A DNA stretch of 64,000 nt from Eledone cirrhosa (taxonomy: Eukaryota), in the NCBI GenBank assembly GCA_964016885.1, contig CAXHJY010001084.1:1-64000 (forward strand), in the 5' to 3' direction. Made by a program: the position numbers and the translations under genes. Of this stretch, positions 1 through 58,934 are shown in pieces. Positions within the stretch are counted from its first letter, which is position 1. Every line of letters begins with the position of its first letter. Below the pieces are notes generated by a model. It searched no databases and was not told the origin of the DNA. It was given only the letters and a program-made list of their open reading frames with translations.

Positions 1-383
1 AGTGTCACAGGTCCCCTTCTCCTCTCATTGGTCAGTTATTAAAATTTGTTTGTTTGAATTCATATGACTCCAGTTCCCCAGTGAATTAACAACCCAACAA
101 GGAACTGGGCATATCAGAGTATTGACAATATCATACACCTAAACAACATATGTACTTGTCTATACCATACTAATTCAAACTGCCTGAAGAGGTCACAGCC
201 AAAGATGGCTGTCACTGAAATATATATAGCAGTAATAAACGAAGCTAAATTTTAATCATTTGACTTTTATTTAACTTTATTTTACACTACTCCGGAGTAA
301 CGAAACCAACCTGCGCACTTCGTCGAGTGCTCCAGCCTGCATACTGAAGTGTTGGTATACAACCAACATAAACTCAAAATCTA
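1..383 (+). mobile_element. Penelope-like pLTR/tail fragment (5' end outside window or undefined)
   Basis: Hammerhead plus AATAAA, T-rich tail, GAGTGCTCC motif (325-333), ends TCTA at a (TA)n tract like the other hammerhead inserts. Confidence 0.5.
179..233 (+). ncRNA. Minimal type I hammerhead ribozyme (Penelope-like element type)
   Basis: Stem I ACTGC(179-183)/GCAGT(229-233); core CTGAAGA (184-190); stem II GGTCACAGCCA-aaga-TGGCTGTCACT (11 positions, one C.C mismatch); GAAA (217-220); mini stem III with palindromic loop ATAT; AUA cleavage triplet; AATAAA immediately 3' (234-239). Confidence 0.8.
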
Positions 384-1115
384 TATATATATACATATAT
401 ATATATATATATATACATATATATATATATATATATATATATATACATATATATATATATATATATATACATATATACATATATATATATACATATATAT
501 ATATACATATATACATATATATATACATATACATATATACATATACATATACATATATACATATACACATATACATATATACATATACATATATACATAT
601 ATACATATACATATATACATATATATATATATACATATATACATATACATATATACATATACACATATACATATATACATATACATATATACATATATAT
701 ACATATATATATATACATATATATATATACATATATATATATACATATATATATATATATATATACATATATATATATACATATATACATATACATATAT
801 ACATATATACATATATATACATATATATACATATATATACATATATATACATATATATACATATATATACATATATATACATATATATACATATATATAC
901 ATATACATATATATATATATATATATATATACATATATATACATATATATACATATATATATATATACATATATATACATATATATACATATATATATAT
1001 ATACATACATATATATATATACATACATATATATACATATATATATATACATACATATATATACATACATATATATATATACATACATATATATACATAT
1101 ATATATATACATACA
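384..1115. repeat. (TA)n microsatellite with TACA interruptions
   Basis: Directly visible. Confidence 0.97.
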
Positions 1116-1711
1116 TGATGCGCATGAAAGTCGATAGCTGTATAACAAAGTGCAGGGCAATAAAGATAGACGGTAGTCACGGAATAGGCAGACCTAGAAA
1201 AACCTGGGACGAGCTGATAAACTCCGACATCACACACTTACACCTCTCCAAGACAATGTCACTGGACCGAGACCTTTGGCGGTACTCAGTAACAGAGAAG
1301 ACCCGCCTTACCTAAATATATAGTAAAACCTACTCCAGCCAGTAGGCATCTCTAACAAAATACACCCCGTCCCACCACCCCCACCCCCACCCGATCCACA
1401 CCACCCCGTTCTATGTAAAGTTATGTTGGTGCCGCGCCATCGAGGCCGAAACAAATGAGATCGTGTAGGTGTCACGACAAAAAAACACACAGTCCACGCT
1501 GTAATGTGGCCGTGTAGGCAACACGGTAAAAACCTCCCAGACCCACACTGTAAATGTGGTTGGTGTTAGGAAGGGCATCCAACTGTAGAAAACCTGCCAG
1601 ACAGTCCTATGCGAGCAAGACAATCACTCTTGCCTCAAGTGGGACTACCCCCGTCCAAACCCATGCAAGCGTGGAACACGGACGTTAAACGTTGATGATG
1701 ATGATGATGAT
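1116..1711 (+). mobile_element. RTE-clade LINE, 5'-truncated 3' fragment
   Basis: ORF2 C-terminus MRMKVDSC...[11 protein letters not shown]...DRDLWR, 3' UTR and GGACGTTAAACGTT(GAT)n tail; near-identical to 9206-9785 on the minus strand. Confidence 0.93.
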
Positions 1712-2232
1712 ACATATATATACATACATATATATACATACATATATATACATATATATATATACATACATATATATACATACATATATATACATACATA
1801 TATATACATATATATACATACATATATATACATACATACATATATATACATATATATACATATATATACATATATATACATATATATACATATATACATA
1901 CATATACATATATATATATATATACATACATACATACATATACATATATATACATATATATACATACATACATATACATATATATACATACATACATATA
2001 CATACATACATATACATATATATAATATACATATATATACATATATATATATACATACACATACATACATATACATATATATACATACATATACATATAT
2101 ATATATATATACATACATATACATATATATATATATATACATATATATATATACATATATATATATATATACATATATATATATATATACATATATATAT
2201 ACATATATATACATATACATATATATACATAT
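1712..2232. repeat. (TA)n/(TACA)n microsatellite
   Basis: Directly visible. Confidence 0.97.
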
Positions 2233-2450
2233 GGTGGCTGCCAACTCGTTTTCGAGTACGGCCACTACTTTACATCCATGTAGGATAACCCCTACCGAAG
2301 CGCTGAACGAGTGTGACTTTTTAGTCCAGCCAGCGACTTGAAACCTCTGGTACAAACACTACACCTGTGACAATCATTGACACATAGTGCTGGGCCCATG
2401 GTAGGACAACTATTGACACATAGTGCTGGGCCCATGTGAGGACAAGTGCA
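2233..2450 (-). mobile_element. 3' end of a different LINE (RTE/BovB-like) with C-terminal zinc-finger motif
   Basis: Minus frame ends [20 protein letters not shown] (C-x2-C-x12-H); short 3' UTR ends in hairpin GTGGC-cgt-ACTCG-aaaa-CGAGT-tggca-GCCAC at the (TA)n junction; 36-bp internal tandem duplication at about 2376-2447. Confidence 0.55.
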
Positions 2451-2717
2451 GAGAGATCTCCAGATATAAAGCAATGCCTGTGCCGTGAAGCTTTTATAGT
2501 GAGCAAAGGCACTGCACAAAGCCAGTCCCACTCTCTTAACCAAGATGATATTTACCAAAAAGAAGAACAAGTCAACATCATTGGATTACCATCAGGGTTG
2601 CAGGTGTTATATCAGAGTTTTCCTTCTCCTAGAATTCTGCCTTGACAAAGGCTAAGGGGTCATCTCTCCCGGTGATTTTGGATGGCCATTGACTCTTAAG
2701 AGCTCCTTTGCCCTTTG

Positions 2718-56511: not shown

Positions 56512-57909
56512 TATTATTGCCCTTCAGGCTATAACAGAGGAGTTCAAGACAGGCTGCCCATGGGAACTCCTATACGCAGACGACCTGACACTCATAGCGG
56601 AATCAATGGCCGAGCTAGAGAAGAAATTCCAAACATGGAAGCACGGCCTAGAGTCAAAAGGACTTAAAATTAACCTGGCTAAGACCAAAGTTCTAGTTTG
56701 TAGGAAAGAAAACAAGGCGGCGGTCCCTTCTGGGAAATGGTCGTGCTCGGTGTGTAGGAAAGGCGTAGGTAGAAACTCCATTTTATGTCCTAAATGCAAA
56801 GTATGGGTGCATAAAAGATGTAGTGGGATCACAGGTAAGCTAACTAAGAACATAGATTTTACATGTGGCCGGTGTTCTGGTGAAATAAGTAGCAGCAAGT
56901 GCCCACAAAATACTAGCTCTTTCAATTGCGCACAGGGTTCTATAGAAATAGTGGACAGCTTCCGTTACCTGGGCGATAAAATCAGCAGTGGGGGAGGGTG
57001 CTCTGAAAGTACTGTAGCTAGAGTCAGAACTGGTTGGAAAAAGTTCAGAGAGCTTATACCACTATTAGCTGCTAAAGGGTTCTCCCTAAAAATGAAAGGC
57101 AGGTTGTACGATGCCTGCATACGAACAGCAATGTTGCATGGCAGTGAGACCTGGGCATTGTGTGCAGAGGATATACGCAGACTAGAGAGGAACGAAGCTT
57201 GCATGCTCCGCTGGATGTGTAACAGTAATATACGTGAACGGCAAAGCATAAACGAACTAAGGAAAAAATTAGAGATAAGAGGGATCAGATGTTGTTTACT
57301 CGAGAGAAGGCTACGTTGGTATGGACACGTGATGCGCATGAAAGTCGATAGCTGTATAACAAAGTGCAGGGCAATAAAGATAGACGGTAGCCACGGAATA
57401 GGCAGACCTAGAAAAACCTGGGATGAGCTGATAAACTCCGACCTCACACACTTACACCTCTCCAAGACAATGTCACTGGACCGAGACCTTTGGCGGTACT
57501 CAGTAACAGAGAAGACCCGCCTTGCCAGTAGGCATCTCTAACAAAATACACCCCGTCCCGCCACCACCCCACCCCATCCACACCACCCCCACCCCATCCA
57601 CACCACCCGTTCTATGTAAAGTTATGTTGGTGGCGCGCCATCGAGGCCGAAACAAATGAGATCGTGTAGGTGTCACGACAAAAAAACACACAGTCCACGC
57701 TGTAATGTGGCCGTGTAGGCAACACGGTAAAAACCTCCCAGACCCACACTGTAAATGTGGTTGGTGTTAGGAAGGGCATCCAACTGTAGAAAACCCGCCA
57801 GACAGTCCTATGCGAGCAAGACAATCACTCTTGCCTCAAGTGGAACTACCCCCGTCCAAACCCATGCAAGAGTGGAACACGAACGTTAAACGTTGATGAT
57901 GATCATGAT
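56512..57909 (+). mobile_element. RTE LINE, 5'-truncated within RT
   Basis: [25 protein letters not shown]...PHD (56744-56875)...EKTRLASRHL* (57541), 3' UTR, (GAT)n tail. Confidence 0.94.
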
Positions 57910-58367
57910 ATATATAATACATACATATATATATACATACATGTATATATACATACATATATATATACATACATATATATATATATATATATATATACAT
58001 ACATACATACATACATACATACATACATATATATACATACATACATACATATATACATACATACATATATACATACATATATATATACATACATATATAT
58101 ATACATACATATATATATACATATATATATACATACATATATATATACATACATATATATATACATACATATATATATACATACATATATATATACATAC
58201 ATATATATATACATACATATATATATACATACATATATATATACATACATATATATATACATACATATATATATATACATACATATATATATACATACAT
58301 ATATATATACATACATATATATATACATACATACATATATACATACATGTATATATACATACATTAT
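57910..58367. repeat. (TACA)/(TA)n microsatellite, 16-bp higher-order unit
   Basis: Directly visible. Confidence 0.96.
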
Positions 58368-58565
58368 GTAGATAAATCTACCAAGAGTTTACGGTAGTGT
58401 CCAATCCGTATGAAGAACTCAATGTAATCCGGATATCATGGAAAGAAGAGATGCAATGAAAAATCACTTTCGGTGAAAGATAAACGGAATACAGAGTCAA
58501 GATAAAGTATTAAAAAAATAATGAATAAAACAATGGAACAGTTCCTTATATTAAACAAAAAAAGT

Positions 58566-58715
58566 TCATTATTTAACGATCGTTTCTAGGATATATATGT
58601 GTTAGAATTGGCATGCATATTCAACAGATCTATGTACAAAATTATACAAAATTATACAAACTATCAAAATTAAATATACATACCAACACATAAATATGCC
58701 GTCTTCAGAAATAAT
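58566..58715 (-). ncRNA. Mirror-copy hammerhead ribozyme with extended stem II
   Basis: Reverse complement of the above with a 7-bp stem I. Confidence 0.62.
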
Positions 58716-58866
58716 CATTATTTCTGAAGACGGCATATATATGTGTTGGTATGTATATTTAATTTTGATAGTTTGTATAATTTTGTATAATTTTGTACAT
58801 AGATCTGTTGAATATGCATGCCAATTCTAACACATATATATCCTAGAAACGATCGTTAAATAATGA
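58715..58866 (+). ncRNA. Type I hammerhead ribozyme with greatly extended stem II
   Basis: Stem I TCATTATTT/AAATAATGA (9 bp); CTGAAGA (58724-58730); 115-nt stem II region; GAAA (58846-58849)-C-GATC-G-TT. The base of stem II is non-canonical (C.A). Confidence 0.65.
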
Positions 58867-58934
58867 ACTTTTTTTGTTTCATATAAGGAACTGTTTCATT
58901 GTTTTATTCATTATTTTTTTAATATTTTTAATAT

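Follow-up and report, generated by a model that had tools for sequence, protein, structure and literature searches.

Hammerhead-bearing inserts in Eledone cirrhosa as likely 3' ends of Hydra-clade Penelope-like elements, with a tail hairpin that may position reverse transcriptase

Background

Penelope-like elements, or PLEs, are the closest described relatives of five short inserts, here called E1 to E5, in the first 64,000 nucleotides (nt) of Eledone cirrhosa contig CAXHJY010001084.1, the whole stretch analysed and called the window below. PLEs of the Hydra clade, in the excerpts available of Craig et al. 2021 (PMC8557442), have (TA)n targets, a hammerhead near the 3' end and an inverted 5'-truncated partner, all of which recur in the window. 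The Naiad clade is defined in the same excerpts by the lack of a canonical hammerhead, a description that the hammerhead-bearing window inserts do not fit.

In the literature searched, one PLE has been reconstituted, the Poseidon element PAc of Anolis (Frangieh et al. 2024, PMC11167929, seen in excerpt). Its reverse transcriptase (RT) starts at two internal positions, which delimit the tail, RNA 3' of the start sites is needed, and both target strands are extended. How PLE proteins choose an RNA and a start site, and why the tail is optional, is the question addressed by the hairpin described here. We consider it likely that the window inserts are 5'-truncated 3' ends of Hydra-clade PLEs and that a short motif in their tails is the 3' strand of a stem-loop which likely positions the RT. 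The stubs themselves are ordinary transposon debris, inserts of a known kind; what is new is the hairpin, the fact that it is duplicated and its constant distance from the ends.

Five inserts in the window

The first-pass annotation of this DNA described four inserts of a shared architecture, and all four (E1 to E4) are present, each with a type I hammerhead core and a palindromic stem III. The inverted partial copy that it saw in three of the four was confirmed by alignment. It missed the hairpin itself and a fifth stub, E5. The features are listed here by position, with strand.

1..381, +: E1, read as a PLE 3' end; 5' limit at the window edge or outside it, inverted arm not in view, (TA)n behind it
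179..233, +: E1 type I hammerhead; core starting at 184, stem III palindromic, cleavage predicted after 228, fold z-score -3.2
289..332, +: E1 bulged stem-loop; ACTC 289-292 with GAGT 325-328, 31-nt inner part, model rank 4
3910-4303: E2, whole insert; two arms, head-to-head
3910..4050, -: E2 inverted arm without a tail; contains a hammerhead (core 4002)
4051..4303, +: E2 main arm; core of the hammerhead at 4118, tail spanning 4218-4303
4225..4253, +: E2 bulged stem-loop; ACTC 4225-4228 with GAGT 4246-4249, model rank 3
52106..52203, -: E5, the fifth stub; inverted arms of ~13 nt plus tail, no hammerhead, TA repeats on either side
52167-52145, -: E5 stem-loop; model rank 1, E 0.069
52225-52424: E3, whole insert; two arms, head-to-head
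52225..52291, -: E3 inverted arm without a tail
52292..52424, +: E3 main arm; core of the hammerhead at 52292, truncated within stem I, tail spanning 52363-52424
52368..52391, +: E3 bulged stem-loop; ACTC 52368 with GAGT 52384, model rank 2
58369-58928: E4, whole insert; two arms, head-to-head
58369..58716, -: E4 main arm; hammerhead core 58708-58575, long stem II, tail ~58503-58369
58413..58497, -: E4 bulged stem-loop with extended inner helix (71 nt); ACTC 58497-58494 with GAGT 58420-58417
58717..58928, +: E4 inverted tail-less arm

In the head-to-head pairs E2 to E4 one arm reaches further at its 3' end. E2 to E5 have the build of a PLE insertion, with an inverted 5'-truncated partner and a tail on one side; the partner of E1 is out of view. 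The inserts lie in (TA)n, a target common to Hydra, Neptune and Naiad elements, and their tails measure 62-135 nt. The four annotated inserts had been called unrelated in primary sequence, which holds for five of their six pairs (no whole-length alignment) but not for E1 and E2, which align from hammerhead to end with a score of 44 (best of 200 shuffles, 38) and have similar tails (p=0.002). The terminal CTA(C), proposed as part of a conserved signal, turned out to be the last C plus the TA target, and it differs in other copies of the E4 family.

Three smaller observations concern the same regions. The two 3' ends of E3 (52213-52227 and 52425-52440) enter (CT)n before (TA)n in an inverted layout, not a target duplication, and slippage at initiation is a possible source of the (CT)n. 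A palindrome without a hammerhead at 51664-51817, with GA/CT-rich ends, may be another fold-back. Upstream of the E1 hammerhead, at 68-120, a second ACTC...GAGT pair surrounds a hairpin with a 9-nt bulge, and does not match the descriptor used below.

Type I hammerhead cores were found at 184(+), 4118(+)/4002(-), 52292(+)/52291(-) and 58708(-)/58724(+), so that E1 to E4 have the type I hammerhead of a PLE terminal repeat and E5 is without one. The window holds six cores with a palindromic tetraloop (mean 0.125, maximum 2, in 200 resampled windows) and five hammerhead pattern matches where 0.19 are expected (0 of 100 shuffles). The annotated list of tetraloops needs one change, as the main arm of E2 has the loop GTGC and GCGC occurs only in its inverted arm. 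The cores are intact, the closing pairs of stem II are non-canonical, and stem III needs a dimer. Stem I of E3 is reduced to 2 base pairs (bp), and the stem II region of E4 is 115 nt long. This E4 stem II (58587-58701, -) forms a long helix whose pairing is kept in some read variants and seemingly extended in one subfamily. A search of Rfam gave no hammerhead in the best 150 of 470 hits, all 150 being microRNA-like repeats. Given E5, the putative hammerhead cleavage would not be required in the insert.

A bulged stem-loop in the tail

The motif GAGT[GT]CT[CT] stands where it had been annotated, at 325, 4246 and 52384 on the plus strand and at 58420 on the minus strand. It starts 56, 57, 40 and 50 nt before the repeat, in line with the 40-60 nt estimated at first. 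The CGGAT or CCGAT said to follow it is present in three of the four inserts and missing from E1. Seven exact matches to the linear motif occur in the window, three of them outside the four inserts, and by itself it exceeds a post-hoc null only modestly (p 0.007-0.14 depending on k; p=0.002 for the sum of pairs).

This motif makes up the 3' strand of a stem-loop with a bulge, RCTC-(hairpin)-TN-GAGY-RCT, which is present in E1 to E4 and in E5. In the inserts each GAGT has its pairing partner in an ACTC further upstream, and between the two lie an inner helix and a bulge of 1-2 nt whose first letter is T. The same fold stands behind the open reading frames (ORFs) of Hydra-clade PLEs of other animals, there with G-C at the base and an inner helix that covaries. 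The conserved cis-signal proposed in the first-pass annotation is supported and is larger than noted, since the motif is one part of a covarying structure common to Hydra-clade PLEs, and the stem-loop is a stronger signal than the linear motif.

Covariation was measured on 17 motifs (14 from assembly G002 and three from G010, two of the rows being misaligned). Paired cells made up 89.1% against 75.3 +/- 2.5 in shuffled alignments, and the score was 0.407 against 0.156 (0 of 500). Slid controls were 22-51% paired. The inner pairs are kept in 17, 16 and 15 of the 17 motifs, and G-C forms the base pair in 16 of them, where E1 to E4 have A-U. Two published consensus ends, Hydra-2_Amil and Hydra-2_Ajap, read by eye, show GAGCACT behind the hairpin.

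Proteins of the Hydra clade are marked by RWK, DKT, a CxCx5C linker and the absence of CCHH. The link to Hydra-type proteins comes from P0361, an ORF with the diagnostic CxCx5C linker and terminal CxxC and CxH, for which no solved structure was found. Its relatives occur at 48 places in four of 21 assemblies. Among their 24 distinct 3' ends the hairpin is seen directly in seven (five by a strict rule, two by a relaxed one), eight are tail-less copies whose tailed siblings have the hairpin, one is cut inside the hairpin and five are uninformative. Assemblies G001, G002, G005, G006 and G010 are labelled bacterial and contain much DNA of animals, in which Poseidon, Neptune and Hydra elements occur, often one inside another within TA repeats.

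Within the window, a descriptor of the stem-loop matched three of the four tails, a number reached by 0 of 1000 shuffled sets. Two covariance models were used, R1, which is longer, and R2, built on the 17 motifs, none of them from the window. In the 64 kb R2 places E5, E3, E2 and E1 at ranks 1-4 of nine hits. Folding gives the helix pairing probabilities of 0.93-1.0 in E3 and 0.85-0.99 in E4. A further helix downstream, GAGT with AAACTC, was tried and dropped.

Specificity of the stem-loop

Outside the Hydra clade, those Poseidon, Neptune and insect PLE ends that were tested yielded no such hairpin. R2 gave no native hit in 76 Poseidon and Neptune loci, where its two hits are nested Hydra-family tails. 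On 100 insect-type loci it gave five hits, and the four inspected, L146 aside, are antisense to hammerhead stems. The 21 assemblies, with 150 candidates scored per genome, yielded at least 40 hits, 28 of them in G002; of 14 inspected hits outside the training set, five are Hydra-family tails and nine have no nearby hammerhead or ORF. The descriptor matched none of 105 insect-type hammerhead tails among the matches listed.

The linear word is not a general PLE signal, and was rejected as one. Metagenome hammerhead tails (105, the matches listed, with one insect-type group predominating) contain GAGTGCT in none and GAGT[GT]CT[CT] in one, no more than controls. The motif was also found in none of eight TA-ended tails from host-contaminated assemblies and was not enriched over reversed controls in five assemblies. 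The supplement of Craig et al. has ten scattered matches, none of them in the Hydra file and with no pattern at 3' ends. The motif joined to a TA pattern gave no viral match and three chance genome matches without hammerheads, and viral contigs showed chance hammerhead patterns only and no PLE ORFs. The insect-type PLE ends (L131-L233) have a pairing motif of their own, TGCATC...GATGCA, and copies stop before or after its 3' strand. The starts of Chlamys-9_cRei and Chlamys-1_cAtm, in the part of the PMC8557442 supplement available, carry AGTGCT...AGCACT hairpins without a bulge near the 5' start.

These searches bear on whether the motif is shared simply by descent among a few host families of Neptune or another TA-targeting clade, its likeness to Hydra elements being chance. 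E1 and E2 are related, the model E-values in the window are weak, and hammerheads with (TA)n behind them accompany Neptune-type ORFs too. Shared descent is nevertheless very improbable in our judgement: in all four inserts the base pair differs on its two strands at once, the end offsets agree, and R2 has no native hit in the Poseidon and Neptune loci. Neptune was the first assignment tried, and was dropped. Neptune ORFs have a CX2-5CxxC linker. Neptune-type ORFs from host-contaminated assemblies have hammerheads and TA flanks and no motif, and the Neptune-type ends examined, a small sample from few hosts, have neither motif nor hairpin. The bulged stem-loop, a mark of the Hydra clade that is defined here and not taken from a publication, is present in the window inserts, and together with the TA target and the hammerhead style it makes Hydra the likely clade of the window families.

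Position of the hairpin relative to insertion ends

Hydra-type elements carry the hairpin twice, with copy A inside the tail and copy B at the beginning of the following unit, immediately ahead of the ORF. In six families the match between tail-less copies and their tailed siblings stops 4-7 nt before copy A. The tail-less arms in the window likewise last match before the hairpin, at -8 in E2, -6 in E3, -7 in E4 and -9 in E5. Tailed ends lie ~5-6 nt upstream of copy B, and in L477 the last match is 5 nt before B. Both the A-side and the B-side ends fall at TA(T), able to anneal to a nicked (TA)n target. Copy B was seen at the start of the ORF unit in L477, L472, L471 and Hydra-1_Ajap, the last read by eye, where the start shows two hairpin copies ~61 nt apart. 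The A-B spacing is 68, 62 and ~61 nt, and copy B lies 19 and 22 nt before the ATG in L477 and L472. The window stubs have copy A only. In the literature searched, with several key sources outside its scope, no description of the motif, the hairpin, its duplication or its fixed offset was found.

A hairpin conserved at PLE ends might instead act as DNA, in endonuclease recognition, in resolution of an intermediate, or as a promoter or terminator. The excerpts of PMC8557442 ascribe the tail to endonuclease-mediated resolution, and those of PMC11167929 report that the D. virilis endonuclease required a tail on DNA; copy B, 19-22 nt before the ATG, stands at a place that would suit a promoter element, and folding does not predict the RNA helix for E1, E2 and E5. 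We think such a role unlikely, as the inner helix varies in sequence and length yet keeps its pairs, G-U included, which fits a single strand, and copy B is missing from terminal insertions yet stands at the same offset from the tailed end.

Several results weigh against a conserved RT-positioning stem-loop on Hydra-clade ends in the window. There is no PLE ORF in the window and none tied to the families of E1 to E5. Three of the 24 ends of P0361 relatives are informative and without the hairpin, and so are the shown ends of Hydra-1_Amil and Hydra-1_Obim, which may be tail-less consensuses. As to the model, its 14 motifs from G002 are related sequences from one assembly, part of the set was chosen by a pairing rule (a pairing-free pattern returns the same motifs), and two pattern hits, L496 and L507, were dropped as not in a Hydra end. 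R2 hits in the window are individually weak (E 0.069-1.5), R1 recovered only E2 and E5, below a chance hit, and the E4 stem-loop was missed by the descriptor, R1 and R2 and was found by hand and by folding. The pairing probability of the helix in context is only 0.01-0.05 for E1 (0.04-0.05), E2 (0.03-0.04) and E5, tail folding z-scores are -0.6 to -1.9, and RNAalifold on a plain alignment gave no common fold. Copy B was observed in four families only, the offsets are blurred by TA microhomology, and the tails in the window are longer than the published 30-40 bp.

The E4 family in sequencing reads

E4 sequence is present in sequencing runs of many organisms. In organism A the family was found in 5589 reads and 1959 contigs, and in organism B in 35 contigs. 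The summed depth of E4 contigs reaches ~770,000, against 6-25 for single contigs; a depth sum is not a copy number, and these values hint at tens of thousands of copies.

An abundant family without an ORF could consist of non-autonomous units, retrozyme-like or resembling miniature inverted-repeat transposable elements, amplified with PLE help. Non-autonomous PLE derivatives are known (excerpts of PMC8557442 and bioRxiv 10.64898/2026.07.22.740005). Eleven contig joints are other fold-backs, with breakpoints that differ between copies, and seven of the 11 joints resume at 58709-58718, near the hammerhead, a clustering partly forced by the end of the reference. Set against such units, 495 reads pass upstream of the E4 hammerhead and fold-back into non-palindromic sequence (median 68-81 letters, in two variants), where the upstream extension of longer copies is visible over 30 letters. 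In 376 reads of other copies a tail-less end is followed by (AT)n. No head-to-tail tandem hammerhead units, as in retrozymes, were found in the window, paired hammerheads lie on opposite strands, and the stubs are without copy B. Amplification as non-autonomous units therefore seems improbable to us.

The read pattern is that of the published truncated PLE insertion and argues against a fixed-length palindromic class. The first-pass reading of the inserts as a class of tiny palindromic retroelements or retrozyme-like RNAs is not supported, and the Penelope-like origin that it proposed is, the architecture being that of PMC8557442, PMC3846280 and PMC4209133 as far as these were available.

Proposed mechanism

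On the Hydra-clade reading, an RT-endonuclease, probably a dimer, would bind copies A and B on a tandem transcript, nick both strands of a TA repeat and prime two complementary DNAs (cDNAs). A hairpin would dock the RT immediately 3' of each start site, and the TA(T) of that site would anneal to the nicked (TA)n. Both cDNAs would stop early and be joined at their truncated ends, giving two head-to-head arms of which one has a tail, and tail length would equal the A-B spacing. The transcript of a stub with copy A alone would give a daughter without any hairpin. The stubs are thus predicted to be dead ends and not a self-propagating class, because they have copy A only.

Recognition of the hairpin by RT is likely, judged from sequence comparison. 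The clade of the window families, the action at the level of RNA, the docking and the twin priming are the parts that we infer. More tentatively, and with chances we would put a little short of even, the Hydra PLEs from corals and sea cucumbers to this host use the hairpin pair as a ruler, each hairpin docking one RT 6-8 nt behind a start site and the dimer priming both strands. The motif had also been proposed to target microsatellites; the text available of PMC8557442 credits a protein linker with targeting, and not a motif.

If this is true, the ruler would explain the head-to-head insert and its optional tail, with tail length set by the spacing (stretched to ~135 nt here), and it would provide a portable signal by which a PLE protein could be made to copy any RNA into TA repeats. 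With the hairpin as a guide, stubs that have no ORF could be assigned to the Hydra clade, and it could be predicted which non-coding derivatives are open to mobilisation.

Neighbouring sequence

Other elements lie near the inserts. Five copies of a long interspersed nuclear element (LINE) with a PHD finger behind the RT, which we take to be RTE-like, stand at 1113-1710, 9206-11600, 32749-34733, 52538-53390 and 56509-57900, and most end in (TGA)n at TA arrays. An endonuclease-RT LINE lies at 5981-8860 (-), a further RT at 53825-55276 (+) and a mariner transposase fragment at 40841-41293 (+). A 5.3-kb array with a GA-rich unit of 20 nt occupies 21041-26378.

Comparison with known systems

Non-LTR retrozymes (Cervera and De la Pena 2020, PMC7229834, and Li et al. 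2026 bioRxiv, both in excerpt) are likewise short, non-coding and PLE-related, with a type I hammerhead. In the available part of PMC7229834 they are head-to-tail tandem repeats that give circular RNA, whereas the window inserts are single or head-to-head.

Metazoan PLE hammerheads, in the excerpts of Cervera and De la Pena 2014 (PMC4209133), share the type I core, the short palindromic stem III and the occurrence of opposite-strand pairs 100-700 bp apart. The G10.1-C11.1 pair, highly conserved there, is found in none of the four hammerhead-bearing inserts, and stem II of E4 is very long by comparison.

PAc, in the portions available of PMC11167929, has traits in common with the mechanism proposed here, namely two start sites and a need for 3' RNA, and its hammerhead is dispensable for insertion in vitro. 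It differs in belonging to another clade and in having an AC-rich stem-loop at the start site, with no duplicated downstream hairpin reported in those portions.

The one-tailed inverted PLE insertions in the excerpts of Arkhipova et al. 2013 (PMC3846280) and in Fig. 2 of Craig et al. 2021 have the same head-to-head arms and palindromic junction. The window tails differ in length, 62-135 nt against 30-40 bp, and in containing a defined structure.

The Hydra clade is closest. Its hammerheads in PMC8557442, as far as available, often have a U before GAAA and a stem III of 8-10 nt, as here, and the stem-loop is present in its published consensus ends, although the available text describes neither the stem-loop nor its second copy. 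Against those elements the window variant has A-U at the base of the stem-loop and is known here without an ORF.

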